64,000 nt of DNA from Turneriella sp. (GTDB lineage Bacteria > Spirochaetota > Leptospiria > Turneriellales > Turneriellaceae). Location: the NCBI GenBank assembly GCA_965279515.1, contig CBDIID010000003.1:3872001-3936000 (forward strand). The letters run 5' to 3'. Within the stretch, counting starts at the first letter, position 1. The number at the start of each line of letters is the position of its first letter. Below are positions 37,660 to 63,287 of this stretch, in pieces. Under the pieces are notes generated by a model that was not told the origin of the DNA, did no database searches, and saw only the letters and a program-made list of their open reading frames with translations. The position numbers and the translations under genes are program-made.

Positions 37660-39011
<1,352 letters not shown>

Positions 39012-39018
39012 TTAGAAT

Positions 39019-39912: not shown

Positions 39913-39925
39913 ATCTTGCTTGTTT

Positions 39926-46485: not shown

Positions 46486-47262
46486 ATGCGTAGAGTAAAA
46501 AAGGCAGAATTTGTGTCCGGTCATCTCAAGAAAAATCAAAGTCATCAAAATGCCGAGAATCGTGAATATTCGGGTACCGCATTACTTTTTCAGGCCGAAG
46601 AAGACATACCAAGGTATAATCGGTGGATTGTTAAACAGGTAATTGATGCAACCGGCAAAAAGCCTGGGCTTAGGGTCTTGGACTTCGGTGCAGGAGTGGG
46701 GACTCTGAGCCAGATTTTTGCGACGCAGGCAGGAGTTACTCCCGATTGCATTGAGCTCGATCGGGAAAATCAGGCGACGATTGCCAGCCGGGGGTTTCGA
46801 TGTTATCAGGAAATCCACGAGCTTCAGGATAAATACAGCTTAGTGTACTCATCGAATGTCTTTGAGCACATACCCGACGATAGTGCCGTTGCCAATGAGC
46901 TTCGTGATCATATGCTTGATGGCGCGAAATTAGTTATCTTTGTTCCTGCATTACCACTATTATGGTCAAAAATGGATTCTCGGGTTGGCCACATTCGGAG
47001 GTACACTAAAAAATCGATGCGTCAAATGCTGGAAAAGTCCGGATTTGATGTTATTTCAATGCGTTATTGTAATTCAGTTGGTTTCGCGTTAACTTTATTG
47101 TTTAAATTGGTTGGTAGTTCAAGTGGTGAGCCTTCGCGCACAGCTCTGAGGATATTCGATAAGTTTTTGTTGCCAATTTCCAGAGTATTTGACTTTCTGT
47201 TGTTGGGTTCTTTAGGTCAAAATTTATTTGTCGTAGCAGATTTAAAACCTGATACCCGGTAA
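46486..47262 (+). CDS. Class I SAM-dependent methyltransferase
   Basis: VLDFGAGVG, NVFEHI.DD, FVPA...L.S..D..VGH.RRY. Confidence 0.85.
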   Translation: MRRVKKAEFVSGHLKKNQSHQNAENREYSGTALLFQAEEDIPRYNRWIVKQVIDATGKKPGLRVLDFGAGVGTLSQIFATQAGVTPDCIELDRENQATIASRGFRCYQEIHELQDKYSLVYSSNVFEHIPDDSAVANELRDHMLDGAKLVIFVPALPLLWSKMDSRVGHIRRYTKKSMRQMLEKSGFDVISMRYCNSVGFALTLLFKLVGSSSGEPSRTALRIFDKFLLPISRVFDFLLLGSLGQNLFVVADLKPDTR

Positions 47263-47267
47263 AATGA

Positions 47268-48104
47268 ATGCTTAAAAAAGATATTGAATACTGGCGTGGA
47301 AAAACTGTCCTGATTACTGGCGGGTCCTCAGGTATTGGTTTGGCGCTTGCACATGAAGTCGTTGAAACTTGCGGAGCCGTTGCCATAATATCACGGAATG
47401 ATACAAGCTTGTCAAAGGCGAAGAAAATTCTTACTGGCCCGAAAAATCAGGCAAAGATCAGGTTTTATCCGTGTGATGTGGGCAGTTCAGTTCAGGTCAA
47501 GAAAATGGCCAACCGCGTATTGAAGGAAGTGGGTTGTCCAGATATAATTATCAATAATGCGGGATTTGCTCACTTTTACACTTTTGACCAAATGGATGAA
47601 AATGATATCGAAGAGACGGCGAATGTTAACTTTTCTGGCTTTCTGCGCGTTACCCGGGCATTCCTTCCAGCGATGATCACAGCAACAGCTCCGGGATGTA
47701 TTGTGAACATTGCTTCCGTGGCCGGTGCGTTCCCGATCACGCCCAATGCTGTGTACGGAGCGGCAAAAGCCGGAATGCTTGCTTTTTCTGAGCTTTTGGG
47801 CATCGAATTGGATCATTTTGGGATAAGAGTTGTCACAGTGTGCCCAGGGCGCGTAGAAACGTCTTTTTTTGACCACATCTCATACAAAAGGCGCGTTGCA
47901 GGTTCCGAGACGCAAATTGTGACTCCGATTCGCAAAGTAACCGATGGGATCATCAGGGCTGTAACTGCCCAGAAGCGAGTTGTCTTTATTCCAGGATACT
48001 GGCGATATTTTGCCTGGCTTTTATCTGTTGATAAACTTGTATTGCGACCTTTGTACCGCGCTTTTCTCAAGAAGCGTGTTGCTCGGTTAAGAAATCAGAA
48101 ATAG
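47268..48104 (+). CDS. SDR family oxidoreductase
   Basis: TGGSSGIG, NNAG, YGAAK. Confidence 0.88.
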   Translation: MLKKDIEYWRGKTVLITGGSSGIGLALAHEVVETCGAVAIISRNDTSLSKAKKILTGPKNQAKIRFYPCDVGSSVQVKKMANRVLKEVGCPDIIINNAGFAHFYTFDQMDENDIEETANVNFSGFLRVTRAFLPAMITATAPGCIVNIASVAGAFPITPNAVYGAAKAGMLAFSELLGIELDHFGIRVVTVCPGRVETSFFDHISYKRRVAGSETQIVTPIRKVTDGIIRAVTAQKRVVFIPGYWRYFAWLLSVDKLVLRPLYRAFLKKRVARLRNQK

Positions 48105-48111
48105 GTAATAT

Positions 48112-48999
48112 ATGAATGAGAAAACCATCGTTTGCCCACTAAATGGGCTTCCAGCCCGGATTTACGTCAGAAAAGGTCGAGCAATCTATTATTTGGAGCC
48201 AAAGTCGGGTTTGATTTTTCAAGGCAATCTGCCCACCGTCAATGATATGGAGGCGTTTAATCAATCCGAATATGAGTCCGGCAGTTACAAAGCTTATGTT
48301 GAGATGGGGCATTTGAAGAAGCGGACGGCCAGAAATAGATTGGAAAAAATTCGAAAATTCGGGAAAGCTTCGGGTAATCTGCTCGATGTTGGTTGCTCTG
48401 CTGGCCTGTTTCTCGAGGTTGCTCAGGAATTCGGATTTAAGGTGCACGGCGTCGAGCTTTCCGCAAAGGCCATTGAGCTAGCGAAACCGGACATCCGGAA
48501 ATTGATTTCTAAAGCGGATGCGAATAAGCACATTAAGAAGTACGGTGCAGTGTATGATGTTGTGACGGCGTACGATATTATTGAACATACACAGGAGCCA
48601 AAAGTTTTTCTCAAGGATCTATATAATGCGTTGGCTCCCGAGGGAGTTGTAGCAATTGCAACTCCGGATTCTGGTCATTTTCTGCGTTACCTGATGCGTG
48701 GGAGCTGGTCAATGTTGCAACCGATGCAGCATACCTTTCTATTTAGCCGCCGAGGGCTTAAGTCGCTGCTAGAGGAGACCGGTTTTCAGGAAGTGCAAAT
48801 AATGTCCGCCAAAAAAACCTTAACTATTAATTATCTATTTGGTCAATTAGCGCAGACAAATCCGCTGATTTCGCGGCTATACAAAATCTTCAAGTTCCTC
48901 ATACCTTCTTTTATCGGAGATGCCATGTTCGATCTGAATATCAGCGAGTTTTTGGCGTTGGCACGAAAGGTCCCAGCAAAAACCAAGGCTTCGAAATGA
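48112..48999 (+). CDS. Class I SAM-dependent methyltransferase
   Basis: LLDVGCSAG, DIIEH, L.P.G...IATP. Confidence 0.85.
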   Translation: MNEKTIVCPLNGLPARIYVRKGRAIYYLEPKSGLIFQGNLPTVNDMEAFNQSEYESGSYKAYVEMGHLKKRTARNRLEKIRKFGKASGNLLDVGCSAGLFLEVAQEFGFKVHGVELSAKAIELAKPDIRKLISKADANKHIKKYGAVYDVVTAYDIIEHTQEPKVFLKDLYNALAPEGVVAIATPDSGHFLRYLMRGSWSMLQPMQHTFLFSRRGLKSLLEETGFQEVQIMSAKKTLTINYLFGQLAQTNPLISRLYKIFKFLIPSFIGDAMFDLNISEFLALARKVPAKTKASK

Positions 49000-50432
49000 G
49001 TCCTTTACGAAACTCAAGAGTTAAAGAAAAGTCGCAGCGTGCTACCTACTCGCAAGGTGCGTGTCCGCTTTGCGGTAGCAAACATCAAGCGTATGTTTAT
49101 TCAAAAGTACATTCCCGTGTTGTCCATTGTACGAATTGCGGGTTGCTGGAAGATGTCGCTTTTGACATAAGGAATCAGCCTCAGAATCATTGGTCCCCGG
49201 AAAAGCTTGAGAAATTATCGGATCTTGTTCAGAATACTCAGGGCAATGTCACATTAATTACGACCATCCGGGGCAATAAGTCCCTCGAGCGTGTTTTTAG
49301 GCAAACTTTGCCGGCAGAGCGTCTGAATGTTGTCGACTTCGCAAAGCTAGGGTCGTTTAGGTCAAAAAATGAAAGCGTTTTTGTAGATGACCACTTACTG
49401 GATCAACCTAATCCCAGGGAAATATTAAGCAAGCTGAACCGAAACTTTCTGCCTGATCAACGCGTGGTTTTTTGCATCGAATTAATTGGCGGAAATCATG
49501 GATGGTTAAGGGAATCCTTGAAACCCAGGGAGGCTTACGCGCGTTTTTGGCCTGATTGGGTTACATTCCACAAATTGCTCTTATCCGCAGGTTTTGAGAA
49601 GGTCTGGCTAAACAACGTCCAAGAAGACCAGCACGGAACCAGTATGGCAATTGTTTCAGCCAAAAATGGAATCGCCCGAGTTCGTCCAAAACTCTCAATA
49701 GTCATGCCCGTTTTCAACGAAGCGGCAACATTTGAATCAACATTTTCCCGGGTGTTGAGTAAGAAAATTCCTGGCGCAGATAAGGAAATAATCATTGTTG
49801 AAAGTAACTCAACGGATGGAACAAAAGATCTTGTTGCGCGCGTTGCAGCAGCGCCGAATGTCAAAGTTCTTTGGCAAGAACGTCCCCGTGGCAAAGGTCA
49901 TGCAGTTCGGCAAGGTATTGAAGCATCCACAGGGAACATCATTCTGATTCAGGATGCGGACCTTGAATATGACGTTAACGATTATGATGCGCTGGTTGAA
50001 GAACTCTTATCGTGGCGCTCTACATTTGTTCTTGGCTCCAGGCATACGGGAGATTGGAAAATGAGGAAGTTTAACGATATGCCGTTCATGGCGGGGTTTT
50101 TCAACTTGGGGCACATTTTTTTCGTTTGGCTAATTAACGTCTTGATTAGGGCCAAAATGAAAGACCCGTTTACAATGTATAAGGTATTCTACAAAGATTG
50201 CATTTATGGTTTACATTTCCGGTATAATCGCTTTGATTTTGATCATGAGTTAGTAATAAAGTTGTATCGAAAGGGCTTTCATCCGCCAGAAATACCCGTT
50301 AACTATGTTGCCCGGTCGTTTTCAGAAGGGAAAAAAGTTTCATTTTTTAAAGATGGAATTTCCTGGTTGGTAAAAGATATTAAGCTGGCGACAGAATCTT
50401 TGAACTCAGCTGATCTCAGGAAAATACCATAG
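48996..50432 (+). CDS. GT2 (polyprenol-phosphate sugar synthase-like) fused to Zn ribbon and degenerate methyltransferase-like region
   Basis: CPLC..CTNC; LSIVMPVFNE, S.STDGT, GKG.AV, QDADLEY, GSR, F.FD.E, EIPV.Y..R....GKK. Confidence 0.85.
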   Translation: MSPLRNSRVKEKSQRATYSQGACPLCGSKHQAYVYSKVHSRVVHCTNCGLLEDVAFDIRNQPQNHWSPEKLEKLSDLVQNTQGNVTLITTIRGNKSLERVFRQTLPAERLNVVDFAKLGSFRSKNESVFVDDHLLDQPNPREILSKLNRNFLPDQRVVFCIELIGGNHGWLRESLKPREAYARFWPDWVTFHKLLLSAGFEKVWLNNVQEDQHGTSMAIVSAKNGIARVRPKLSIVMPVFNEAATFESTFSRVLSKKIPGADKEIIIVESNSTDGTKDLVARVAAAPNVKVLWQERPRGKGHAVRQGIEASTGNIILIQDADLEYDVNDYDALVEELLSWRSTFVLGSRHTGDWKMRKFNDMPFMAGFFNLGHIFFVWLINVLIRAKMKDPFTMYKVFYKDCIYGLHFRYNRFDFDHELVIKLYRKGFHPPEIPVNYVARSFSEGKKVSFFKDGISWLVKDIKLATESLNSADLRKIP

Positions 50433-50499: not shown

Positions 50500-51456
50500 A
50501 TGAAGTTCATAGTAACAGGCTGTGCCGGCTTTATCGGGAGCAACCTCACGGACCGATTGCTTGATGAAGGGCACTCTGTGGTCGGAATCGACAATTTTTC
50601 CACGGGGCAACGGGAGTTTCTTCACAAGGCACTGAAAAATTCAAAATTCTCCCTGGTTGAGGCAGATCTGCTTAATCCGGAAGTTTATGTTGATTCTTTT
50701 TCCGGCGGAGATAGGGTTTATCATCTTGCAGCGAATGCTGATGTCCGTTTTGGTACCAATCATCCAAGAAGGGACCTGGAGCAGAACACGATTGCAACTT
50801 ATAATGTTCTTGAGGCGATGCGGGCAAACGGAATTAAGCAGATTATCTTTTCATCGACCGGGTCAGTTTACGGGGAAGCTCCTGTCATACCAACGCCTGA
50901 AGATTGTCCATTTCCAATCCAAACATCACTGTATGCGGCGTCTAAACTTGCATGTGAGGGTTTGCTGGCAGCATATAGTGCAGGATTTGGATTTCAGGTT
51001 TGGATTTTTCGGTTTGTATCTATTCTTGGAGAGCGATACACGCATGGTCACGTATTTGACTTCTACAAACAACTAAAAGCAGATGGTTCCCGCTTGCGCG
51101 TGCTGGGCAATGGAAAACAAAGAAAATCTTATCTCTATATTCAGGATTGTTTGGATGCGATTCATGTCGCGGTTGAAATGGCTAAGGAAAACGTCAATAT
51201 ATTCAATCTTGGCGTTGATGGATATTGTGAAGTCAATGATTCCATTGGATGGATTTGTGGCTCGCTCGGACTAAAGCCAATTTTAGAATACACCGGGGGA
51301 GATCGCGGGTGGATCGGCGACAATCCCTTTATCTTCCTGGAGACCCGGAAAATAAAACAACTAGGATGGATACCGAAGTTATCGATTCAGGAAGGCGTCA
51401 AAAAAACCATAGATTACCTTCGCGAAAATCCATGGGTAATGGAAGCTAGGGCATGA
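50500..51456 (+). CDS. NAD-dependent nucleotide-sugar epimerase/dehydratase
   Basis: TGCAGFIG, HLAANADV, SLYAASK. Confidence 0.9.
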   Translation: MKFIVTGCAGFIGSNLTDRLLDEGHSVVGIDNFSTGQREFLHKALKNSKFSLVEADLLNPEVYVDSFSGGDRVYHLAANADVRFGTNHPRRDLEQNTIATYNVLEAMRANGIKQIIFSSTGSVYGEAPVIPTPEDCPFPIQTSLYAASKLACEGLLAAYSAGFGFQVWIFRFVSILGERYTHGHVFDFYKQLKADGSRLRVLGNGKQRKSYLYIQDCLDAIHVAVEMAKENVNIFNLGVDGYCEVNDSIGWICGSLGLKPILEYTGGDRGWIGDNPFIFLETRKIKQLGWIPKLSIQEGVKKTIDYLRENPWVMEARA

Positions 51457-52763
51457 AAATCTGCGTTCAGGGTTTGTGGCATCTCGGTACGGTAATCGTC
51501 GCGGGATCAGCCAGCCTTGGGCACGACGTAATCGGTCTGGATTTTGACGAATCGGTCATCAATAATCTGCGAAACGGTCAGGCTCCTATACACGAGCCTG
51601 GTCTAGACGACCTCCTTTTGGATGGCCTCTCCAAGAAACTAATCCATTTTACAGAAATGGCGTCAGATATTCCTGGAGATACCGATGTTCTCTGGGTTAC
51701 GTATGATACTCCCGTCGATGCAGACGACAAAGCCGATGCAGATTTTGTCTACAATCAGATAATTCAGACTTTGCCTTTCTTGCCCAATGGAGTTATTGTA
51801 ATGATCTCCTCGCAACTACCCGTTGGGTCAATTGCGCATTTGGAAGAAATCGCCCGGAAGGAATTTGCGGCGAAAGAACTCACTTTTGCGTGCTCTCCAG
51901 AAAATTTGCGATTGGGGAGGGCGCTTGATGTATTTTTACATCCGGATAGAATCGTAGTTGGCTATCGTAGTGCTAAGGACAAAGAAAAGCTGCAAAAACT
52001 CTTTCATCCATGGTCATCTCCGATCGAGTGGATGTCCGTAGAATCTGCGGAAATGACAAAGCATGCTATTAATTCATTTCTGGCGGTTTCTGTCACCTAC
52101 GCAAATGAGATTGCATCTATTTGCGAGCTCGTCGGTGCGGACGCCAAAGAGGTCGAGCGCGGTCTGAAATCGGAGCAGAGGATTGGACCAGGGGCTTACC
52201 TTTCACCGGGTGGTGCTTTTGCGGGGGGGACACTCGCCAGGGACATCGCCTTCCTGAACCAGTTAAGCCTGCGATTGGGCCTAGAATCTTCACTGCTGGC
52301 ATCAGTGCGCAAGAGTAACGAGAATCATAAGCATTGGGTAGAGCGCCGTTTGAAAGCAATTTTTCCATCTCTGCATAAATTGAAGGTTGCCGTTTGGGGA
52401 CTTACGTATAAGCCTGAAACGGACACTTTAAGGAGATCTGCGGTCGTAGAATTTTGCAGCCGGCTCATTAATGATCAGGTTCAATTGCGGGTTCATGATC
52501 CTCTTGTGAAAGAATTACCTGAGGGATGGGAAGAAAAGGTGGAACGCTATTCCGATCCGCTCGACATGCTCCGGGCTGCTGATGTTCTTATTGTTGGAAC
52601 GGCGCATTCATCATACAAGTCAATCACCCCTGAGGAAATAAAAAATGTGGCACGAGGGCTGGTAATCCTGGATCAAAACAGAATATTGAAAGATCTAATG
52701 GGTCACGTCGAGCTGCGATATTATTCCGTTGGAACCTCTCAAACTTTGGTAGGCTCGGGATGA
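51453..52763 (+). CDS. UDP-glucose/GDP-mannose dehydrogenase homolog lacking the catalytic Cys
   Basis: PIHEPGL, SPENLR.G, AEMTKHAIN.FLA, GLTYKP; FAGGTLARD in place of the canonical (Y/F)GGSCFPKD. Confidence 0.85.
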   Translation: MKICVQGLWHLGTVIVAGSASLGHDVIGLDFDESVINNLRNGQAPIHEPGLDDLLLDGLSKKLIHFTEMASDIPGDTDVLWVTYDTPVDADDKADADFVYNQIIQTLPFLPNGVIVMISSQLPVGSIAHLEEIARKEFAAKELTFACSPENLRLGRALDVFLHPDRIVVGYRSAKDKEKLQKLFHPWSSPIEWMSVESAEMTKHAINSFLAVSVTYANEIASICELVGADAKEVERGLKSEQRIGPGAYLSPGGAFAGGTLARDIAFLNQLSLRLGLESSLLASVRKSNENHKHWVERRLKAIFPSLHKLKVAVWGLTYKPETDTLRRSAVVEFCSRLINDQVQLRVHDPLVKELPEGWEEKVERYSDPLDMLRAADVLIVGTAHSSYKSITPEEIKNVARGLVILDQNRILKDLMGHVELRYYSVGTSQTLVGSG

Positions 52764-53635
52764 ATTATTCCCTTGAAAATAAAGTCGCTATCATAACCGG
52801 AGCCAGTCAGGGATTGGGGCTCGAAATTTCGCGGAAATACATCATGGCTGGAGCCTCTGTTATGCTTTGTGCCCGGGAGACCGGCCGACTTGAAAGAGAG
52901 GCTAGCGAACTTACGAAACTCCTTAAGCAAGGACAAACGTTAGAGGCTTTTTCCGTGGATGTGTCCTTGGAAGGTGAAGTGGGTTTGATGGTTGAAAACA
53001 TTATCAAACGCCACGGCCGGATTGATATTCTTGTCAACAATGCCGGGATTTACGGGCCTATGGGACCTATCGAATCGGTGGACTGGTTGCACTGGAAGAA
53101 GGCTATAGATGTAAATCTCTTTGGTTCCATACTGATGTGCCGGCTTGTAGTACCTTACATGAAAAAGCAAAAATCTGGAAAAATAATTCAGCTCTCCGGC
53201 GGAGGAGCCACCAATCCATTGCCAAATATCAGCGCATACGCGGTTTCCAAGGCTGCGATAGTCCGGTTTGCCGAGACCCTCGCTGAAGAATTGCGTGAAT
53301 TTGGCGTAGATGTCAATTCGATAGCACCCGGTGCCTTAAACACGCGTATGCTTGATGAAGTTCTGTCAGCAGGACCTGAAAATGTTGGTAAAAACTTCTA
53401 TGAGAAATCCGTTAAGCAAAAGCAAAATGGTGGTGCAGGACTTGAGGCTGGCGCGGAATTAGCCGTGTTTCTCGGGTCTGCCGTGAGTAACGGAATTACA
53501 GCAAAACTCATAAGTGCAGTATGGGATAATTGGCAGGAATGGCCCAAACATCTTGCAAAACTTAATAATTCAGATGCATATACCATTCGACGCATTGCGG
53601 GGCGCGAGCGGGATTTTTCGCTGGGTGACAAATGA
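52760..53635 (+). CDS. SDR family oxidoreductase (sugar ketoreductase candidate)
   Basis: TGASQGLG, NNAG, LSGGGA, YAVSK. Confidence 0.88.
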   Translation: MNYSLENKVAIITGASQGLGLEISRKYIMAGASVMLCARETGRLEREASELTKLLKQGQTLEAFSVDVSLEGEVGLMVENIIKRHGRIDILVNNAGIYGPMGPIESVDWLHWKKAIDVNLFGSILMCRLVVPYMKKQKSGKIIQLSGGGATNPLPNISAYAVSKAAIVRFAETLAEELREFGVDVNSIAPGALNTRMLDEVLSAGPENVGKNFYEKSVKQKQNGGAGLEAGAELAVFLGSAVSNGITAKLISAVWDNWQEWPKHLAKLNNSDAYTIRRIAGRERDFSLGDK

Positions 53636-54621
53636 GTCTGCGCATCGGAATCATCGGTTGTGGATTGATTGGACAAAAGCGGGCAAATTCTTTAGGGGAT
53701 ATGAGCTTAGTTGCGTGCGCTGATTTAAGCGAAGATCGAGCCAAGGCTGTCGCAAAGGGAAAAGCAAAGGTATATACCCAGTGGCGTGAGCTCCTCGCCG
53801 ATCCTCAAGTGGAGGCTGTAATAATTGCAACCCTGCACGATTCATTGGCAGAAATTACTTTGGCTGCAATTCAAAGCGGGAAGCATGTGTTGGTAGAAAA
53901 GCCAGCGGCGCGAAACTCCTCGGAATTGCTCCCAATTCTTGATGCTTTGAAAACAAGCAAAATAAAAGTCCGGGTTGGCTTTAATCATCGCTTTCATCGT
54001 GCAATGCAAGCGGCCCGGGAGCTCGTTGATTCCGGCTCGCTCGGAGAATTAATGTATATCCGGGCGCGCTACGGCCATGGAGGTCGTCCCGGCTATGATC
54101 GTGAATGGCGTGCTCAACCTAAGGTTTCAGGGGGGGGTGAATTGATCGATCAGGGACCGCATATTATAGACTTGGCCCGTTGGTTTCTGGGGGATTTTTC
54201 AGACATCAATGGATTCGCACATACTTATTTCTGGGATATGGCCGTAGATGATAACGGATTTCTGCTATTAAGAAATACAAAAAAGCAGGTGGCTTTTTTA
54301 CATGCGAGTTGCACTGAATGGAAGAACATGTTCTCCATGGAGATATACGGCAAAATCGGCAAGGTGGAAATTTCAGGACTGGGGGGAAGCTACGGTGTGG
54401 AGCGCCTTTGCTTTTACAAAATGCTGCCTGAGATGGGGCCACCTGAAACTACAATTTGGGAGTATCCGATGGCAGATAATTCCTGGGCGCTTGAACTCTC
54501 TGAGTTCGCCAGAGATATAAGTTTGAACAGAAATTCTTCGCCTGGAATCAATGATGCATATCAAACACTTAAAATAATCGAGAAGATTTATCAGGAGTCT
54601 GGCTATGATCATCGCGCGTAG
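53632..54621 (+). CDS. Gfo/Idh/MocA family oxidoreductase
   Basis: IGCGLIG, GKHVLVEKP, GFNHRF, GGGELIDQGPHIID. Confidence 0.9.
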   Translation: MSLRIGIIGCGLIGQKRANSLGDMSLVACADLSEDRAKAVAKGKAKVYTQWRELLADPQVEAVIIATLHDSLAEITLAAIQSGKHVLVEKPAARNSSELLPILDALKTSKIKVRVGFNHRFHRAMQAARELVDSGSLGELMYIRARYGHGGRPGYDREWRAQPKVSGGGELIDQGPHIIDLARWFLGDFSDINGFAHTYFWDMAVDDNGFLLLRNTKKQVAFLHASCTEWKNMFSMEIYGKIGKVEISGLGGSYGVERLCFYKMLPEMGPPETTIWEYPMADNSWALELSEFARDISLNRNSSPGINDAYQTLKIIEKIYQESGYDHRA

Positions 54622-55585
54622 TCCGTTACGTATTACACTTGGCGGAGGGGGCACAGATTTACCTTCTTATTATCGCCAACATGAAGGATTTCTCATCGCG
54701 GGAGCTATTAACAAATACGTTTATGTAACTGTTATGCGCCCGTTCACCGAAGGTATCTACCTGAAGTATTCGGAGTTGGAACAAGTGGCGAAAGTGACTG
54801 ATGTCAAGCACCGAATCATCAGGGAAGCCCTGCTAATACAAAACTTGCGGACCCCCCAAATCGAAATCACAACTCTCGCAGATATTCCGGCAGGAACCGG
54901 CTTAGGGTCTTCAGGAAGTTTTACAACGGCTCTTTTGAAAGCATTATATGCACATCGGCGTCAATTATTGCATCCTAAGGAACTTGCAGAAATGGCATGT
55001 CATGTTGAAATTGACAGGCTTGGTGAACCCATCGGCAAACAGGATCAATATATTGCAGCTTATGGGGGGCTAACTTGCTTCACTTTCCACAAAGACGATA
55101 GTGTAACCGCGATACCGCTAAATATCACCATGGATACCATGCATGATCTGGAGGATAATATCCTGTTGTTTTTTACCGGTTACGCGCGCAGTGCGAGCGG
55201 AATACTCACGGATCAAAATGTTCGAACGCAGAGTAGCGATGCGGAAATGCTAAAAAATCTTCATTTTGTGAAGGAGCTCGGTTATCGCAGCTTGCATGCG
55301 TTAGAAGCGGGTGATGTCATCAAATTTGGGGAGCTAATGCATGAGCATTGGGAACATAAGAAAAGTCGATCTGGAGGGATGAGTAATCCACAAATTGATG
55401 AGTGGTACTCCCTTGGAATCAAAAGCGGCGCCGTTGGCGGAAAACTTGTAGGTGCGGGCGGCGGCGGCTTTTTAATGTTCTATGCGTCTGATCGTACTAA
55501 ACTCCGGCAAGCGATGACACGCGCTGGCCTTGAAGAGGTTCGGTTTACTTTCGATTTCGAAGGTACAAAGGTTGTATTGTCTTGA
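54605..55585 (+). CDS. GHMP sugar-phosphate kinase (HddA-like)
   Basis: SPLRITLGGGGTD, DIPAGTGLGSSG, GKQDQY, GGKLVGAGGGGF. Confidence 0.92.
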   Translation: MIIARSPLRITLGGGGTDLPSYYRQHEGFLIAGAINKYVYVTVMRPFTEGIYLKYSELEQVAKVTDVKHRIIREALLIQNLRTPQIEITTLADIPAGTGLGSSGSFTTALLKALYAHRRQLLHPKELAEMACHVEIDRLGEPIGKQDQYIAAYGGLTCFTFHKDDSVTAIPLNITMDTMHDLEDNILLFFTGYARSASGILTDQNVRTQSSDAEMLKNLHFVKELGYRSLHALEAGDVIKFGELMHEHWEHKKSRSGGMSNPQIDEWYSLGIKSGAVGGKLVGAGGGGFLMFYASDRTKLRQAMTRAGLEEVRFTFDFEGTKVVLS

Positions 55586-56289
55586 GTTTACCGGTCGCCA
55601 TTCTGGCGGGCGGGTTTGCGACCCGGTTATTGCCCATCACTGAAAAGATTCCAAAAGCGTTGGTTGACGTCGCAGGAAAGCCTTTTATCCTTCGTCAATT
55701 GGAGCACCTGCACGTCCAAGGATTGGATCGCGTCGTAATCTGCGTCAACTATCTTGGCGGACAAATTGAAGCTGCGCTCGGAGATGGCAAGGCCCTTGGC
55801 ATGGAAATTAAGTACTCATGGGATGGAGAAAATCCTTTGGGGACAGCGGGTGCTTTAAAAAAAGCGAGTCGGTTGCTTGGCGATACATTCTTCGTTTATT
55901 ATGGTGATTCCTTTTTGCCTATTGATTTTCAGGCTGTCGCGGCAGCTTTTGCCAGCTGTGGCCACCCGGCGTTGATGACCGTACTTAAGAACGAAGATAG
56001 ATGGGATAAGAGCAATGTCATATTTGTAAATGGCAAATTGATAAGTTACGATAAAAAAAATCAGGTGCCTGAAATGAAATATATTGATTACGGTCTAGGT
56101 ATAATCTCCGCTTCAATTCTAAAAGAAGTATCGGAAGATAAATCCACGGATCTTTCCGATATTTATCGTGAACTTTCTCGCGATGGACGTCTGGCCGGAT
56201 TCGAAGTTTTTGACCGATTCTATGAAATTGGATCTCACAAAGGCCTTGACGAGACGACTAGATACTTTACGAATACAGGTTTACAATGA
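55582..56289 (+). CDS. Sugar-1-phosphate nucleotidyltransferase (HddC-like)
   Basis: ILAGGFATRL...IPKALV, LGTAGAL, YGDS, FYEIG; TTG start. Confidence 0.9.
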   Translation: MSLPVAILAGGFATRLLPITEKIPKALVDVAGKPFILRQLEHLHVQGLDRVVICVNYLGGQIEAALGDGKALGMEIKYSWDGENPLGTAGALKKASRLLGDTFFVYYGDSFLPIDFQAVAAAFASCGHPALMTVLKNEDRWDKSNVIFVNGKLISYDKKNQVPEMKYIDYGLGIISASILKEVSEDKSTDLSDIYRELSRDGRLAGFEVFDRFYEIGSHKGLDETTRYFTNTGLQ

Positions 56290-56891
56290 GCTATTCCGCA
56301 AAGCATTTGGCTGAGGCTGTAGAGATTCTTGCCAAAATTAATCCTGATGATCTGGAAAAAATGACCGATTTGTTGGTTCAAGTAAAGGCAGACGGTGGTA
56401 GAATATTTTTTCTCGGTGTAGGCGGAAGTGCCGGAAATTGCTCCCATGCGGTTAACGATTTCCGAAAAATCGTGGGAATTGAATGTTATGCCCCGACAGA
56501 TAATGTTTCCGAACTCACGGCAAGAACCAATGACGAAGGCTGGGCAACTATTTTTGTGGAATGGTTGAAGATTAGTAAGCTGACTTCGAAGGATTTGCTT
56601 TTCATTCTTTCTGTCGGTGGTGGTAGCTTGGAAAAAAATATTAGCCCAAATCTGGTTACTGCTTTGCAATATGGAAAACAACAAGGAGCAAAGATTACGG
56701 GAGTGATTGGTCGTGATGGCGGATATACAGCTACAGTAGCCGACGCATGCCTGATAATCCCGACAGTGAATCCGGAGAACATTACTCCGCATTCCGAAGC
56801 CTTTCAGGCCGTAGCATGGCATTTGCTTGTGTCACATCCGAAGCTAAAGGCTTCCGCGACTAAATGGGAATCTACAGTAAAAACTTCGTGA
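56286..56891 (+). CDS. SIS-domain sugar-phosphate isomerase (GmhA-like)
   Basis: GVGGSAGNCSHAVND, ARTNDEG, SVGGG. Confidence 0.88.
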   Translation: MSYSAKHLAEAVEILAKINPDDLEKMTDLLVQVKADGGRIFFLGVGGSAGNCSHAVNDFRKIVGIECYAPTDNVSELTARTNDEGWATIFVEWLKISKLTSKDLLFILSVGGGSLEKNISPNLVTALQYGKQQGAKITGVIGRDGGYTATVADACLIIPTVNPENITPHSEAFQAVAWHLLVSHPKLKASATKWESTVKTS

Positions 56892-56901
56892 TTCGCTTTG
56901 T

Positions 56902-57447
56902 GTGATTGCTAAAGCAGTTTTTTTAGACAGGGACGGTGTTATTAACCGTGCCTTGGTTAAAGATGGCAGACCATATCCTCCCAGGGATTTGCAGGGTGTC
57001 GAAATTATCCCGGGTGTACACACTGCCTTACAGAAATTGAAGAGCCATGGATTCATTCTGATTGTGGTCACAAATCAACCCGATGTTGGCAGGGGTGTAA
57101 CGCCAATAACCTTAGTCGAAGCAATAAATAAGTATCTTGGACGGGAATTGCCAATCGATAAGTTCTTAGTGTGCTACCACGATGACGCTGATAATTGCTT
57201 ATGCCGAAAGCCAAAACCGGGAATGTTATTCGAAGCTGCCAGGGCTTTTGATATCGACTTGAATCAGTCATATTTGATCGGTGATCGCTGGAGAGATGTG
57301 GAGGCTGGGATTAATGCGGGCTGTAAGACAATATTTATTGACTACGGATACAATGAAAAACAACCCGAAAATGCGGATTTTGTAGTGAAATCGATAGATG
57401 AAGTTGTGGAGATTATTCTCAAAGGAGTGCATGATGAAGAAAATTGA
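56902..57447 (+). CDS. HAD-IIIA sugar bisphosphate phosphatase (GmhB-like)
   Basis: FLDRDGVIN, VVTNQ, CxH...CxCRKPKPGM, IGDRWRD. Confidence 0.92.
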   Translation: MIAKAVFLDRDGVINRALVKDGRPYPPRDLQGVEIIPGVHTALQKLKSHGFILIVVTNQPDVGRGVTPITLVEAINKYLGRELPIDKFLVCYHDDADNCLCRKPKPGMLFEAARAFDIDLNQSYLIGDRWRDVEAGINAGCKTIFIDYGYNEKQPENADFVVKSIDEVVEIILKGVHDEEN

Positions 57448-58150
57448 AGATCTGAACATCAAGATATTTGCAGATGGTGCTGATAAAGAAGGGATGCTCG
57501 AAATGAACAGCAAGTCTTACATAAAAGGACTTACAACAAACCCGACTTTGATGAACAAAGCCGGCATAAAGGACTACAAAGCCTTCGCCCAAGACATACT
57601 TTCAACCATCAAGGATAAGCCTATTTCATTCGAAGTTTTTTCCGATGATTTTGCCGAAATGGAAAGACAGGCTATGGAAATAGCCGGATGGGGAAGTAAT
57701 GTTTACGTGAAAATTCCGGTAACTAATACTAAGGGCGAAACCTGCTACAGCATGGTGAAAAAACTGGCTGCAAATAAGGTAAAGTTAAATGTAACCGCCC
57801 TCATGACACTTGCCCAGGTTCGGGACGTCGTTGCTTCGTTGCAAAATGATGTACCCAGTTACGTGTCTGTTTTTGCAGGCCGCATTGCTGATACAGGCTG
57901 CGATCCGATGCCTTTGATGGCAGCCGCCGTAGAAATGCTCAAGCCAAACCGCAGTGCGGAACTTATTTGGGCAAGTCCCCGCGAACTTTTGAATATTTTT
58001 CATGCAGAAGCGATTGGGTGCCAAGTAATAACCGTGACAAATGATATTCTGAAAAAGCTGACTCTAGTCGGTTATGACTTAGGAGCATATTCCCTTGATA
58101 CTGTGAAAATGTTCTATAAAGATGCTGTGGCGGCCGGATTTAAGCTGTAA
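57431..58150 (+). CDS. Transaldolase family protein (short FSA/TalC type) inside a sugar operon
   Basis: IFADGAD, GLTTNPTLM, VYVKIP Schiff-base Lys, NVTA, SVFAGRIAD, WASPRE; AGGAG RBS. Confidence 0.92.
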   Translation: MMKKIEDLNIKIFADGADKEGMLEMNSKSYIKGLTTNPTLMNKAGIKDYKAFAQDILSTIKDKPISFEVFSDDFAEMERQAMEIAGWGSNVYVKIPVTNTKGETCYSMVKKLAANKVKLNVTALMTLAQVRDVVASLQNDVPSYVSVFAGRIADTGCDPMPLMAAAVEMLKPNRSAELIWASPRELLNIFHAEAIGCQVITVTNDILKKLTLVGYDLGAYSLDTVKMFYKDAVAAGFKL

Positions 58151-58477: not shown

Positions 58478-58828
58478 GTGCAGCGTCGTCGCAGATGGTC
58501 TGTTGCAGAGAAGCTGGAGATTCTCGCCGAAGCTGAACAACCCGGAATGAGCATGTCGTATGTGGCCCGCAAACATGGCATTGCGGCAACGCAGATTTTT
58601 AAGTGGAAAAAGCTGAAAGAAGCTGGCGCTCTGGCGGCTGTCGATAGCGAAGAAGAGGTGTTGCCCGTATCTCAGGTTAAGCAACTACGCGAACGCATCC
58701 GCCGACTGGAAAACATTCTGGGCCGTAAAACCGAAGAAGTGGAAATTCTTAAGGAAGCGGTTCGTATTGGACGCGAAAAAAAACTCATCTCGCACAAGCC
58801 GTTACACGGAATCGACGGTTTCGAGTGA
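58478..58828 (+). CDS. IS3 transposase OrfA (HTH); true start may be further upstream
   Basis: RRRRWS..EK....AE...PG.S...VARKHGI; A8 slippery run at 58776-58783. Confidence 0.88.
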   Translation: MQRRRRWSVAEKLEILAEAEQPGMSMSYVARKHGIAATQIFKWKKLKEAGALAAVDSEEEVLPVSQVKQLRERIRRLENILGRKTEEVEILKEAVRIGREKKLISHKPLHGIDGFE

Positions 58829-59646
58829 GTCGGGTTGCTGATGTATTGCGCGTTGCGCGGTCGAATATCTATGAGGGCTTGAAATCCTCACGTCGGGGAC
58901 GGAAAATTGATCGTATAGTCGATGAACGAGTCCTGCCTGAAATCCGCCGGATTTGCGACGAAAGGCCAACATATGGTTACCAGCGCGTGACTCCCGTACT
59001 CAACAAAAACCTTGAAAAACAAGGATTTTCCCGCGTGAATAAGAAGCGCGTTTATCGGCTGATGAAAGAACACCAGCTGTTGCTACCGAAAAGCGCCAGC
59101 CGTCGGACGCTGGTGCATGATGGCAAGATCATCACTGCCAAAAGTGACGTGCGCTGGTGCATGGATATATTTGGAGTGCTCACCTGGAATGGGACTCACG
59201 TCTGGGTTGCATTTGTTTTGGATTGCCACGACCGCCAGATCATCAACCATTTCAGCAGTACCATCGGCATCGACGGTCTGAATATTCGTGACATGCTGCT
59301 GGGTGCTGTCGAGGAACGCTTCGGTAAGGCCGAATGTCCTCACACCATTCAACTGCTGAGTGACAATGGTCCGCAATTCACAAGCCGCGAAACAGTTCAT
59401 TTTGCATCCTCGATCGGATTTCAAGTATGCACCACGCCAGCCTACAGCCCCGAAAGCAATGGCATGGCCGAAGCATTTGTGAAAACATTCAAGCGCGATT
59501 ACGTTTACATCAATCGCCTTGAGTCCGCATGGAAAGTAATGCCGCAGATTTCGGAGTGGATGCATGACTACAACCATCATGCGCCCCATAAAGGCTTGAA
59601 GATGCGTTCACCGGTTGAATACAGGAGCTTAATGGCAGCAGGCTAA
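58825..59646 (+). CDS. IS3 transposase OrfB (DDE integrase core)
   Basis: TYGYQRV, WCMD, LSDNGPQF, SPESNGMAEAFVKTFKRDY, YN...PH..L...SP. Confidence 0.92.
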   Translation: MSRVADVLRVARSNIYEGLKSSRRGRKIDRIVDERVLPEIRRICDERPTYGYQRVTPVLNKNLEKQGFSRVNKKRVYRLMKEHQLLLPKSASRRTLVHDGKIITAKSDVRWCMDIFGVLTWNGTHVWVAFVLDCHDRQIINHFSSTIGIDGLNIRDMLLGAVEERFGKAECPHTIQLLSDNGPQFTSRETVHFASSIGFQVCTTPAYSPESNGMAEAFVKTFKRDYVYINRLESAWKVMPQISEWMHDYNHHAPHKGLKMRSPVEYRSLMAAG

Positions 59647-59733: not shown

Positions 59734-61470
59734 TCAAGGAGTATCCGATCTCTCTGCCTTTCTTGTCGGTTGTTCACAGGTTGGCGCAATTGCTTTGTTT
59801 GGACATGCTGAAAATTTCAAGTTCGGCAATCCCGTGCCGCAATATCCCGTGAAGAGGGCATATATTTCATAGTCTACAGGTTTGTCACAGGCTGCAACAT
59901 TAAAGGTGATGGCGTCGCCTTTTAGGTTAAAGGCGCCACTTTCATATTTTCGCGTGCCGCAGTCATATTTAATAATATTGTCATCGAATGGCCTCTTTAG
60001 CGGTTGATTTCGCACATCCGTAAAGCTGATTTTTACTTCACATTGTCCATTGATGCATTTAGCATTCGTCGTAGGTTTAGGATTCAGGTGCCTGCTAGTC
60101 AGTTCAAACCAGTTATATTTTGGTATCAGCCATTGTCCGACGCCAATCGCTAGCGTACTTATGCCTACCAAAGGTATAAGCCAAGCCAAGCGTTTTTTCT
60201 TGAATGCCTGGGCAACGAATTGCAACAGACCAGGACCAGTGGCGATGGTGAGTAATAGCGTTGCGAGAATGAATTCTCTGGTCAGCCCATATTTGTTATG
60301 GGTACCACCCCAAACGGCGGTTGCATTGTAACCCAGAGTTATTGTCAAAAATGATCCAACCCCTATCAGGAATGCGAAACCAACCATTGGCGAATCAGTA
60401 CGCCAATCTCTTTTCAAAAAGATTCCAGTAAAGGAGGCAAAGAGCGTGAGCGGAATAATGTAGAAAAGAATCGGCAACTGCATAAGCAACGGCATATAGA
60501 AATCGGACCTTGAAAAACCACCCAGAATGATGCGTCGAAAGGAGTACTCGTTGCCGTAGCTATAGTAATTAGGGTCGACAAACGTTTGTATTAAATGCAA
60601 CGGAATCATCTTCGGATTGAGACTCATGTATTCTCTGATATAAGTGTCCTGTGATCGCAATTGGCTATAGTGCCCATTCATCGGCATTCCGTTAGAAAAA
60701 TAATAAATAAAAGCAACCGCAAAAATAGCTCCGGAAATGGAAGCTGTTATGCGTTTCAGCAATAGAGCAAAATCAATTTTGTTTTTCTTCAAAAACAAGT
60801 AATGGCCAAACATGATTGCGGTTGCAACAGCACAGGCTAAGAAAACGGCCATGGCCTCATGACGGCGAACATTAGCGAATAAAATTCCAGAAAAAGCCGC
60901 CGCGAAATACCACAGGAGCCGGTTATTGCACATAGCCTCTATGAACGAAAATACGAAAGCAACTCCGCAGAAAGCAGCAGCGTAATGCGACCAGGGGATG
61001 TAGTTAAAACGCAAGATGGTGCTAAGCTGATACATAATAATCCATAGCAAAACAGAGAAAAACGCCAATGAGAGTTTGTTTTTTACTGGGTTCAGTACCA
61101 TTCCCACTCGAAACATAAGCAATACTGAGAGCAGGGCTGCAGCCATGGCGTAAGCCATGCCGTGATAGGCGAAAGATGCGTCCACTGACGGTGTATACCA
61201 CACGCCGGATAATTTGTGGTAAAATCCGATCAGAGATAAATAGCCTGTTGCCATATATCCGCTTCGCACGGAGTCAGGCACTTCACCTGCCATAGCCGCT
61301 TTAAAGGCCATATATATCTCGCCCTGATCGTCACGATTGCTAAATGTTGCACTGTTTTGGGTCAGATTATGTTTAGCGCCGGCAAAATTGTCCTGAAAAA
61401 CAAAATAGCAGGGTAAAATCAGGCAAATTACAATTAACAACACCTTCAGCGATTTCAGCATAGAAGTCAT
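59734..61470 (-). CDS. Polytopic membrane protein with C-terminal extracytoplasmic domain (GT-C-like candidate)
   Basis: About 10-11 TM segments, acidic DD pair in the first loop (NRDDQGE), Cys-containing C-terminal beta domain; start chosen at ATG 61470. Confidence 0.6.
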   Translation of the reverse strand: MTSMLKSLKVLLIVICLILPCYFVFQDNFAGAKHNLTQNSATFSNRDDQGEIYMAFKAAMAGEVPDSVRSGYMATGYLSLIGFYHKLSGVWYTPSVDASFAYHGMAYAMAAALLSVLLMFRVGMVLNPVKNKLSLAFFSVLLWIIMYQLSTILRFNYIPWSHYAAAFCGVAFVFSFIEAMCNNRLLWYFAAAFSGILFANVRRHEAMAVFLACAVATAIMFGHYLFLKKNKIDFALLLKRITASISGAIFAVAFIYYFSNGMPMNGHYSQLRSQDTYIREYMSLNPKMIPLHLIQTFVDPNYYSYGNEYSFRRIILGGFSRSDFYMPLLMQLPILFYIIPLTLFASFTGIFLKRDWRTDSPMVGFAFLIGVGSFLTITLGYNATAVWGGTHNKYGLTREFILATLLLTIATGPGLLQFVAQAFKKKRLAWLIPLVGISTLAIGVGQWLIPKYNWFELTSRHLNPKPTTNAKCINGQCEVKISFTDVRNQPLKRPFDDNIIKYDCGTRKYESGAFNLKGDAITFNVAACDKPVDYEIYALFTGYCGTGLPNLKFSACPNKAIAPTCEQPTRKAERSDTP

Positions 61471-61695
61471 TGACCGATTGTGCACCATCGACTTGCCGAG
61501 AAGAAGAATTTGACTTTGGATATGGAATATCGCGTGTTTGGCAACAATTAACTGAACAGCCGGCCCGAAACTGGAAATGTTTACGAATTGCAAAACAGCC
61601 AAAAATCGCCGGCGCTAAACCGTCATCGCCATTAAAAAAGTGCATGCAAATTGCCAGGCAATTTCCACTCACTTTAAAAGCCTGGTTAAGAAATT

Positions 61696-62814
61696 TCAGG
61701 GGTGGAGGATTTTACTGAGGGCTTTCACAACCTTCTGAATCTGCCCGGAACTAAGATGGCTACTTGAAGGTAAATATAGTCCACGCTCGGCAAGGTATTC
61801 GCTAACGGGTAAGGTTTGACGTGTTGCATATATAGGCTGCTTATGCATCGGGAAAAAAAAGGGCCTCGAATCGACACCCTCTGCGCGCAGTTGTTGCATA
61901 ATATTTTCGCGTGAATTTTTCACATGATCATTCAGAGTTACTCCAAACATCCAGTAGCAGTTTTTGGCCCAATCTCGTTCGACTGGTAACCCGAGCAGTT
62001 CACCCAAATTATGTTTTCGGATTTCTTGCAGATACTCCGCTGCATTCCTTCGTCGTGCGGTAACTAATTCGTCAAATCTCGCCGTTTGGGCATATCCAAT
62101 AGCTGCCTGCAAATTCGTCATCCGGTAATTATACCCTATTGCCTGGTGCACATAATTCCGTTGACCATCTAAGGGGAATGCAAGATTCTTGTAGTATTTA
62201 GCGGAATCTGAAATATCAGGATTATTTGTGCATACCATCCCGCCCTCGCCGGTCGTCAAAATCTTATTTGCGAAGAAGGAATATGCTGTTGCATCGGGCT
62301 GCTCCGCCAGACGCTTCTCATAAGCCAGGGCTCCATGACCCTCTGCCGCATCTTCAATCCACATGATTTTGTATTTGTCCCTCAGTTCAGCGATCACCTT
62401 ATAATCTGAAGGATGCCCGTAAATTGTTACGCTCAGGATTCCAAATGTCTTGTCATTAATCAGACTCTCAATCTGTGACGTGTCCATCGTCCAGGAATCT
62501 GATACCGAATCCACAAAGATGGGTTTTGCGTTACAGTATGATACAGCGTTTGCCGTTGCCACCATGGTGAATGATGGCATTATCACTTCTTGGCCTGGTT
62601 TCAAACCTGCAGCAAGCAAAGCGATATGCACTGCAGCAGTACCATTACAAACCGAAATCCCGTACTTTGCACCAACCTTCTCTGCAAATCCAGTTTCAAA
62701 CTGACCAATATATTTGCCGACGGATCCGATCCAGCCGCTCTCCATCGCATCTCTGACGTACTCCTGCTCTAAGGGCCCCAGGGTGGGTTCACAGACGGGG
62801 ATCAATTCTGCCAT
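61696..62814 (-). CDS. DegT/DnrJ/EryC1/StrS aminotransferase (perosamine synthetase-like)
   Basis: NGTAAVH.AL, EDAAEGHGA, SFFANKILTTGEGG, GYNYRMTNLQAAIG, RPFF.PMH.QP. Confidence 0.92.
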   Translation of the reverse strand: MAELIPVCEPTLGPLEQEYVRDAMESGWIGSVGKYIGQFETGFAEKVGAKYGISVCNGTAAVHIALLAAGLKPGQEVIMPSFTMVATANAVSYCNAKPIFVDSVSDSWTMDTSQIESLINDKTFGILSVTIYGHPSDYKVIAELRDKYKIMWIEDAAEGHGALAYEKRLAEQPDATAYSFFANKILTTGEGGMVCTNNPDISDSAKYYKNLAFPLDGQRNYVHQAIGYNYRMTNLQAAIGYAQTARFDELVTARRRNAAEYLQEIRKHNLGELLGLPVERDWAKNCYWMFGVTLNDHVKNSRENIMQQLRAEGVDSRPFFFPMHKQPIYATRQTLPVSEYLAERGLYLPSSSHLSSGQIQKVVKALSKILHP

Positions 62815-63215
62815 GGGAAAATGCGTTTATCGGATTCACGGGACAGGTATGGTCCCAACTTGACTTCGAGAATTTTTGTCTCTTTATTCATGACAAGGCT
62901 GTGTCCTCCCTGTATTAACAATACGGTATCTCCGTCCTCAAGAGTTACGGATTTTACAATTTTGTCCCGCCAGTACATATTTACGATACAACTGCCGTGC
63001 ATGATGTGTAGCAACTCGGGACTTAAATCGGCAGGTAAGTCAGGTTGGTTTTTCAGAATGTGCTCATGGGGTTCGCACTTTCCCCCTGCGGGATAATTAT
63101 TAAACCCAATTTGGAATAACCATTCGTTTGGAGAAATAAAATTATATCCTGTAGGAAAATCGGCACTTTTGATGATTACGGCAAGTTGCGTTTCACCAGA
63201 AAATATTTTTTCCAT
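62802..63215 (-). CDS. Small cupin-fold protein of glycan loci
   Basis: PHEH, E...I..G, GD..LL..GGH, EVK.GPY....DK; overlaps the aminotransferase gene. Confidence 0.75.
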   Translation of the reverse strand: MEKIFSGETQLAVIIKSADFPTGYNFISPNEWLFQIGFNNYPAGGKCEPHEHILKNQPDLPADLSPELLHIMHGSCIVNMYWRDKIVKSVTLEDGDTVLLIQGGHSLVMNKETKILEVKLGPYLSRESDKRIFPWQN

Positions 63216-63287
63216 CAAACTCCTTTTGCTCTTTGAGACTCGAAGTCCCAAATCTATTCACGATGGAAAGCAGCAACGCGCTGAATA

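Follow-up and report, generated by a model that had tools for sequence, protein, structure and literature searches.

A block of nine genes at positions 50500-58150 of a 64,000-nucleotide stretch of Turneriella sp. DNA (contig CBDIID010000003.1, positions 3,872,001 to 3,936,000; called the window below) appears, with a confidence somewhat above even, to be a cassette that makes an eight-carbon GDP-sugar for the cell surface. That the product is specifically an 8-deoxy octose is rather doubtful. Lincomycin and similar antibiotics are known to contain straight-chain aldoses of eight carbons. The cassette is not the canonical GDP-heptose route, because its transaldolase is tied to a cassette-type SIS isomerase and because this isomerase belongs to a clade with a rebuilt phosphate loop. 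Three points escaped the preliminary description of this DNA, which was made from the letters alone. The block is a cassette found across phyla and not a spirochete speciality, it consists of a fixed five-gene core with variable tailoring genes, and its product probably travels on a polyprenol-phosphate carrier. The present analysis itself examined four points: a kinase-anchored control, the marker in the SIS loop, the swap of transaldolases, and the division of the block into core and tailoring genes.

Organization of the Nine-Gene Block

The nine coupled genes of named families that had been described for this block are all on the + strand, and their open reading frame (ORF) coordinates and Pfam families agree. 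Intergenic distances along the block are -4, -4, -4, -17, -4, -4, and +10 bases. The transaldolase most likely starts at 57431, with AAGGAG ahead of it, and overlaps the phosphatase ORF by 17 bases. Scanning for promoters and terminators gave no useful signal (32 sites against 22.4 ± 4.9; 19 against 14.6 ± 4.0). The nine genes are listed below.

50500..51456, + strand: epimerase of the extended class within the short-chain dehydrogenase/reductase (SDR) family, 318 aa, LmbM-family counterpart (Pfam PF01370 Epimerase)
51453..52763, + strand: UDP-glucose/GDP-mannose dehydrogenase homolog without the catalytic Cys (T260), 436 aa, LmbL-family counterpart (UDPG_MGDP_dh N, central, and C)
52760..53635, + strand: classical SDR, probable ketoreductase, 291 aa, without a lincosamide counterpart (PF00106 adh_short, YxxxK motif)
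53632..54621, + strand: Gfo/Idh/MocA oxidoreductase (Gfo), 329 aa, LmbZ/CcbZ-family counterpart without a carrier-protein domain (GFO_IDH_MocA)
54605..55585, + strand: GHMP sugar-phosphate 1-kinase, 326 aa, HddA/LmbP family (GHMP N and C)
55582..56289, + strand: sugar-1-phosphate nucleotidyltransferase, 235 aa, HddC/LmbO family (NTP_transferase)
56286..56891, + strand: SIS ketose-aldose isomerase, 201 aa, transaldolase-linked clade (SIS_2; GVGGS, HAVND, and SVGGG with a 6-residue insertion)
56902..57447, + strand: HAD bisphosphate phosphatase, 181 aa, GmhB/LmbK type (HAD-like; DxD and CxH..CxC motifs)
57431..58150, + strand: cassette transaldolase, 239 aa, TIGR02134 subfamily (TAL_FSA; 335 bits against a cut-off of 282)

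Distribution of the Cassette

A GTDB scan anchored on the Cys-less dehydrogenase gave at least 557 confirmed stretches, of which the best 80 were examined as loci. All nine genes were found in 43 of these 80 and were collinear in 40, and among the loci with room for the whole block the full set was present in 40 of 49. The same gene order in 40 loci indicates that the block did not arise by chance. The 80 loci belong to Pseudomonadota, Cyanobacteria, Chlorobi/Bacteroidota, Acidobacteriota, Chloroflexota, Myxococcota, Nitrospirota, and other phyla, and this conservation of the nine-gene form across phyla implies one defined product for that form.

The Cys-less dehydrogenase also occurs in eight loci from viral collections (L196-L203), where the viral status of the contigs is a collection label only. 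One of these (L199) has the epimerase, dehydrogenase, SDR, Gfo, kinase, nucleotidyltransferase, transaldolase, and SIS genes. On plasmid 3 of Lawsonia intracellularis (L101, NC_008014.1) the cassette is rearranged and is accompanied by an LPG_synthase_TM flippase and a family 2 glycosyltransferase (GT2), and plasmid 1 of the same organism carries a separate HddA-like set (L111).

Transaldolase and Isomerase

The linkage of transaldolase and isomerase was followed in a control anchored on the kinase, so that the transaldolase itself did not serve as the anchor. The cassette kinase was searched in 201 Acidobacteriota and 401 Pseudomonadota genomes, and 89 places were located besides the two seed loci. 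The resulting sample of 78 regions covers 80 of them; the nine that scored weakest in Pseudomonadota were omitted. A transaldolase stood beside 14 of the 15 cassette-type SIS genes, and the 15th locus was cut by a contig end. It stood beside none of the 18 other-SIS genes (14 of these loci fully flanked) and in none of the 45 loci without SIS. These counts are given without a P value, since related loci are not independent. In two dehydrogenase-anchored sets the transaldolase was present in 48/52 and 20/23 loci; for six of the misses the locus reaches the limit of the DNA that was fetched, and for one the transaldolase is about 21 kb away from the locus.

The transaldolase-linked SIS proteins formed one clade (FastTree, midpoint root), marked by the change of an S-T/S-S-G loop to S-V-G/H-G-G plus an insertion. 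We take this loop to be the one that binds the substrate phosphate in GmhA. An extra region (L242) had one non-clade SIS 4 kb from a cassette transaldolase. The GmhA motifs GNGGS, HxAxE, STSG, and RIQE are not kept in the cassette SIS, which has GVGGS, HAVND, SVGGG with the insertion, and HSEA in their place. The SIS scored 46 bits with the gmhA model (cut-off 209), the kinase 160 bits with the HddA model (cut-off 600), and the nucleotidyltransferase 83 bits with HddC (cut-off 300), its best NCBIfam score being 117 bits with MurU (cut-off 250). These scores far under the cut-offs, together with the separate SIS clade, support the earlier reading of the block as something other than an ordinary GDP-heptose set.

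The cassette transaldolase keeps the catalytic Asp, Asn, Glu, Lys, Phe, and Arg when aligned to TalC structures. It had been called dedicated, and in agreement with this the genome encodes a second, TalC-type transaldolase (C3:2271160), 28% identical to it. With this second enzyme in the host, supply of sedoheptulose-7-phosphate is a weak reason for the cassette copy. A further GmhB and a canonical dehydrogenase are encoded there as well, and the cassette SIS and kinase had no additional match in the genome. Two transaldolase subfamilies are used in cassettes (100/100 support, the bootstrap being not fully settled), and in L219 and L223 the SIS type of the window is paired with a TalC-type transaldolase. 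Different subfamilies beside the same SIS type indicate that the gene was swapped yet kept. This fits a committed first step better than a boost of supply, because canonical heptose loci do without the transaldolase.

A change in the SIS metal site was also considered as an octose marker and was dropped, because the SIS proteins of the hygromycin cluster and of Rhizobium have the same change. L109 and many Rhizobium plasmids carry a transaldolase-free heptose-type cluster with a non-canonical SIS (SIS, GT2, flippase, epimerase, HAD/nucleotidyltransferase, and kinase), and a related kinase occurs in 58 Rhizobium plasmid records.

Cys-Less Dehydrogenase and Tailoring Genes

The replacement of the catalytic Cys by Thr, reported earlier for the dehydrogenase homolog, was confirmed. 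FAGGTLARD corresponds to residues 256-264, and in UDP-glucose dehydrogenases of solved structure the residue aligned with T260 is the Cys of GGSCFPKD. GGTLARD is invariant in 120/120 nearest homologs, Thr occupies the catalytic-Cys position in 143 of 150 representatives (50% clustering), and the active-site residues K203, N207, and D264 are invariant. The Cys-less enzymes form one clade separate from five canonical outgroup sequences (FastTree). The predicted structure has the three-domain fold of the family (Foldseek TM ~0.8), with a weak model at residues 244-259, around the motif. A canonical Cys-bearing UDP-glucose dehydrogenase (GGSCFKKD) is encoded just beyond the window (L115:12737-14113).

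Gfo accompanies the Cys-less dehydrogenase in 53/53 and 25/26 well-flanked loci. Of nine loci that lack the classical SDR, eight have an extended SDR after Gfo, and the dehydrogenase is fused to an SDR in 5/8 representatives, which were picked by length. The near-constant Gfo and the SDR substitute or fusion suggest that the dehydrogenase needs both Gfo and a second reductase. Such a need would fit elimination of the C8 hydroxyl to a 6,7-diketone followed by two reductions.

The composition of the tailoring genes varies among the 14 control cassettes. The full tailoring set was found in two, the epimerase, SDR, and Gfo without the dehydrogenase in three, and none of the four genes in five. No Cys-less dehydrogenase was found elsewhere in 10 genomes with dehydrogenase-free cassettes, these genomes being incomplete to varying, unmeasured degrees.

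Two further kinds of variation were observed. In L143, L148, L158, L160, L163, L164, L172, and L177, an extended SDR right after Gfo replaces the classical SDR. It is Rmd-like by motif with only sub-cut-off dehydratase matches in NCBIfam, is often found with two epimerases, and may mark a second product type. Fusions of cassette genes (P0126, P0134, P0160, P0167, and P0243) join dehydrogenase and SDR in both orders, SDR and Gfo, Gfo and kinase, Gfo and nucleotidyltransferase, nucleotidyltransferase and SIS, and SIS and HAD.

Nucleotide and Lipid Carrier

The best PDB matches of the epimerase are 3EHE (E 1.5e-85) and 8RDG/8RDH (E 3e-72), and the protein is nearest to an archaeal GDP-sugar 4-epimerase subgroup. 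It keeps three of four PhGal4E_1 residues (R83, Y145, and H182), and P80 is replaced by Ala. PhGal4E_1 prefers GDP-sugars (PMC12171764; here and below, cited statements refer to the accessible parts of the sources). The best PDB match of the nucleotidyltransferase is GDP-mannose pyrophosphorylase beta. By these relationships, GDP is the likelier nucleotide for the cassette sugar.

Genes around the block include the following.

46486..48999, + strand: two S-adenosylmethionine (SAM) methyltransferases and an SDR upstream of the GT2, which travel with the cassette in L013 (44-65% identity)
48996..50432, + strand: GT2 glycosyltransferase, polyprenol-phosphate DPM/AglJ-like, with an N-terminal extension (PF00535; best NCBIfam match AglJ, below cut-off)
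59734..61602, - strand: candidate GT-C transferase, a membrane protein of 622 aa in which hydropathy shows about 10 hydrophobic segments (no Pfam or NCBIfam match)

The GT2 at 48996-50432, the probable loader of the cassette product, has homologs in 23 cassette loci, and the 12 best of these are 48-63% identical to it. The Atlas neighbours of the 622-aa membrane protein are GT39/PMT_2-like at 0.94-0.95, which is a lead only. A scan of 83 among 304 flanking ORFs showed that cassettes often lie next to genes for a polyprenol-phosphate GT2, for GtrA or LPG_synthase_TM, for a methyltransferase, and for YfhO-like proteins, and a GtrB/DPM-type GT2 or a flippase was in view in 39 of the 80 best loci. 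A second DPM-like GT2 lies at L115:2133-2924, and either GT2/GT-C pair could serve the cassette.

Proposed Biosynthetic Pathway

From the genes, their families and motifs, their linkage, and their modularity, we infer the following pathway. First, the transaldolase would move a three-carbon unit from fructose-6-phosphate or sedoheptulose-7-phosphate onto ribose-5-phosphate, giving octulose-8-phosphate. Second, the specialised SIS would isomerise octulose-8-phosphate to octose-8-phosphate, which the kinase, phosphatase, and nucleotidyltransferase may then convert to GDP-octose. The tailoring enzymes would act next. The epimerase is predicted to invert C4 and/or C6, the Cys-less dehydrogenase to oxidise the secondary C6 alcohol, for which no Cys is needed, and Gfo and SDR to reduce the resulting ketone or ketones. 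The outcome would be an epimerised octose, or an 8-deoxyoctose if the C8 hydroxyl is eliminated as in lincosamides. Finally, the GT2 would load the sugar on undecaprenyl phosphate, and the GT-C protein would add it to a surface glycan.

Several observations weigh against this pathway. The transaldolase has ordinary catalytic residues, and no residue was seen in it that sets the acceptor length. TIGR02134 members also occur outside glycan loci (L102 and L103), and ordinary transaldolases make sedoheptulose-7-phosphate as well. The SIS metal-site change (E65D/Q172E) is common to the SIS of the hygromycin cluster. Only 2 of the 14 control cassettes have the Cys-less dehydrogenase. In L207, L208, and L211 the epimerase, SDR, and Gfo are present without it, and none was found elsewhere in these genomes. 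A fixed scheme of dehydration and then reduction is weakened because SDR and Gfo persist without the dehydrogenase. Loss of the Cys would imply only a secondary alcohol at C6, and is therefore equally compatible with a heptose and an octose. Among the window ORFs scanned with Pfam there was no flippase, although many relatives have one, and lipid-carrier genes are common beside non-cassette kinases too, so that they represent a route and not a marker. The nine genes include no equivalent of LmbS. In 2015 the best outside match of CcbL was only 33% identical and that of CcbR was a Cellulomonas protein (PMC4351081), and any kinship with the Ccb proteins is therefore distant. Full-text literature searches, with most subscription journals outside their coverage, returned no octose-bearing surface glycan.

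Alternative Explanations

An unusual GDP-heptose is the alternative that survives best, and it is considered unlikely. The product would be a non-manno heptose epimerised at C4/C6; the transaldolase would only boost or secure the supply of sedoheptulose-7-phosphate, the dehydrogenase and SDR would act together as a two-enzyme C6 epimerase, and Gfo would act at a ring carbon. All five core families also serve heptose routes, and a secondary C6 alcohol is all that the loss of the Cys requires. The dehydrogenase-SDR fusions fit a pair that oxidises and then reduces, and SDR and Gfo occur without the dehydrogenase in the three loci named above. The D/E change in the metal site is shared with the hygromycin-cluster SIS, and HygP makes altro-heptose from sedoheptulose-7-phosphate (PMC10948575). 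In contrast, the transaldolase is found in 0/18 other-SIS loci and 0/45 loci of further HddA-like kinases, the hosts checked have other transaldolases, and the rebuilt phosphate loop is confined to the transaldolase-linked SIS and absent from that of hygromycin.

In another alternative, which is improbable, the acceptor is a hexose-6-phosphate or a pentose other than ribose, and the product is a nine-carbon sugar or another octose stereoisomer, which has no lincosamide precedent. Transaldolases accept varied aldose phosphates. A broad substrate range has been described (PMC5854111), the SIS loop is strongly rebuilt, and the window transaldolase is of TIGR02134 type, whereas CcbR has the length of TalC (222 aa). 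However, a nine-carbon product has left no direct sign, and the sole characterised pathway found with the same family set, as far as the accessible sources go, makes an eight-carbon sugar.

A diffusible glycoside or antibiotic, as in lincosamides, would suit the match to the lincosamide sugar branch and the nearby methyltransferases, but it is very improbable beside Wzm/Wzt, GT2, GT4, GDP-mannose 4,6-dehydratase (GMD), GtrA/GtrB, and YfhO-like neighbours, with SIS and Gfo devoid of carrier-protein domains, and with neither adenylation nor amide-ligase genes in the set of ORFs that was scanned.

Implications

The GDP-octose pathway can be extended to a broader proposal, which is held tentatively and falls short of an even chance. 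It states that a widespread GDP-octose pathway (GDP-8-deoxyoctose in the nine-gene form), with a diagnostic SIS clade and modular tailoring, decorates surfaces across many phyla and was the source of the lincosamide branch of Streptomyces. If the cassette makes a surface octose, hundreds of species would have an unreported surface sugar whose genes are now annotated as heptose or UDP-glucuronate synthesis. The lincosamide sugar pathway would gain an origin, and enzymes for making higher-carbon sugar nucleotides would be at hand. The S-V-G/H-G-G motif of the SIS with a linked transaldolase provides a simple marker of the cassette. Under the heptose reading, too, the route would be one not yet described, and the Cys-less dehydrogenases would be a large family of uncharacterised chemistry.

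Genomic Setting and Origin

The G+C content of the window drops from 0.52-0.57 to 0.41-0.49 past 38 kb. At third codon positions, G+C amounts to 0.39-0.47 for the cassette and to 0.63-0.69 for five housekeeping genes, and an insertion-sequence-like element lies directly after the transaldolase. The malate dehydrogenase of the window falls in a 90% cluster with Turneriella names, which places the host among the spirochetes at genus level. In Spirochaetota, only 2 of 301 genomes of the phylum score above the level of canonical dehydrogenases. Low G+C, low third-position G+C, the insertion-sequence-like element, and rarity in the phylum together indicate that the nine-gene block was acquired horizontally by its spirochete host. 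In this low-G+C island the neighbours identified by Pfam are Wzm/Wzt, GT4, GMD, a C-methyltransferase, methyltransferases, and GT2, a setting that agrees with the surface-glycan locus proposed earlier. Two features lie beyond the block.

58478..59646, + strand: two-ORF insertion sequence, IS3-like by translation
61696-62814, - strand: DegT-family aminotransferase beyond the insertion sequence, with matches of only 21-31%, in 6/83 loci

A 149-aa protein without a Pfam match pairs with the DegT gene (61696-63251, - strand), and neither is conserved beside the cassette. Three enzymes encoded at positions 38031-41170 of the window, in the same island as the cassette, would probably lead to a 6-deoxyhexose with a C-methyl branch: a GDP-mannose 4,6-dehydratase that scores above cut-off, a reductase of Rmd-like type, and a sugar C-methyltransferase (PF08484/PF08421). 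The island (window 38000-64000) continues beyond the window at L115:1-14113, with GT4 genes and another multi-transmembrane protein. Two more ORFs, at 30398-30955 and 35645-36211, resemble, by translation only, a spirochete DUF1564 protein and part of a transposase.

Comparison with Known Systems

The full-text searches, most subscription journals being outside their coverage, gave no description of the cassette, and the accessible part of an archaeal glycoproteomics paper (PMC12153357) gave no octose lead. The GDP-D-glycero-alpha-D-manno-heptose pathway (GmhA, HddA, GmhB, and HddC) shares its four activating families and the logic of its steps with the cassette. The cassette differs from it by its changed SIS motifs and by a transaldolase of its own, which the 18 other-SIS loci lack.

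Three-component lipid-carrier glycosylation (GtrA/GtrB/GT-C, ArnC/EF/T) resembles the surroundings of many cassettes in its polyprenol-phosphate GT2, GtrA/LPG_synthase_TM flippase, and YfhO/PMT-like proteins. In contrast, the cassette donor would be a higher-carbon sugar, and the window has no identified flippase.

The hygromycin B branch has a non-canonical SIS with Asp and Glu at GmhA positions E65 and Q172 (L105, regarded as the ortholog of HygP because of the cluster it lies in) and an HddA-like kinase 35% identical to the cassette kinase. Unlike the cassette SIS, the hygromycin SIS keeps the short phosphate loop; the branch has a GalT-like transferase, and its product is a heptose. No transaldolase is annotated in the 16 kb fetched around this SIS.

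In Coxiella burnetii, as far as the accessible description goes, the O-antigen region cbu0664-0704 contains a second heptose-type set with the isomerase cbu0674, the epimerase cbu0676, and the HldE-like cbu0678, the last being needed for full-length lipopolysaccharide. A heptose-type activation set inside an O-antigen locus is the likeness to the cassette, which was compared by description and serves as a lead only. The Coxiella set has an HldE-type kinase/adenylyltransferase, whereas the cassette has a GHMP kinase and a nucleotidyltransferase, and the known sugars of Coxiella are virenose and dihydrohydroxystreptose. An adjoining transaldolase, Gfo, and dehydrogenase homolog are presumably present in Coxiella too.

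In the lincosamide branch, LmbR, LmbN, LmbP, LmbK, and LmbO build up GDP-octose, and LmbL and CcbZ carry out a 6,8-dehydration. LmbR forms octulose from fructose-6-phosphate or sedoheptulose-7-phosphate and ribose-5-phosphate (PMC5854111), and LmbM, LmbL, CcbZ, and CcbS lead from GDP-octose to GDP-lincosamide (PMC12945683). The preliminary description had called the gene set lincosamide-like. This stands for eight of the nine families, which match Lmb/Ccb proteins, and fails for LmbS, which has no equivalent, and for the carrier-protein domains, which are lacking. The likeness to Streptomyces lincolnensis and S. caelestis is one of family and length and covers CcbK (185 aa), CcbL (436), CcbM (325), CcbN (202), CcbZ (Gfo part ~332), CcbP (323), CcbO (232), and CcbR (222) (PMC4351081). 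Where lincosamides have the aminotransferase LmbS/CcbS, the cassette has an SDR. Neither its SIS (201 aa) nor its Gfo (329 aa) includes a carrier-protein domain or any other extra domain, condensation genes are absent, and it lies in a glycan locus with lipid-carrier transferases. Its transaldolase is of TIGR02134 type, whereas CcbR, in the accessible data, has TalC length (PMC4351081).

The best outside matches of the Ccb proteins are 33-49% identical and include acidobacterial and myxobacterial proteins (PMC4351081). The cassette is itself common in acidobacteria and myxobacteria. No carrier-protein fusion appeared in the best 120 matches each of Gfo and SIS fragment-profile searches of longer proteins, and no Lmb name appeared among the 20 looked up of 150 representatives. 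A locus with DegT beside cassette genes (L157) was considered as an exact lincosamide layout and dropped; its DegT lies among NeuB-like, Gfo, and GNAT genes that belong to a different pathway. The cassette was kept outside the lincosamide class because it is without LmbS and carrier domains and because the likeness is known at the level of family and length; by analogy, it nevertheless appears to work like the lincosamide sugar branch.

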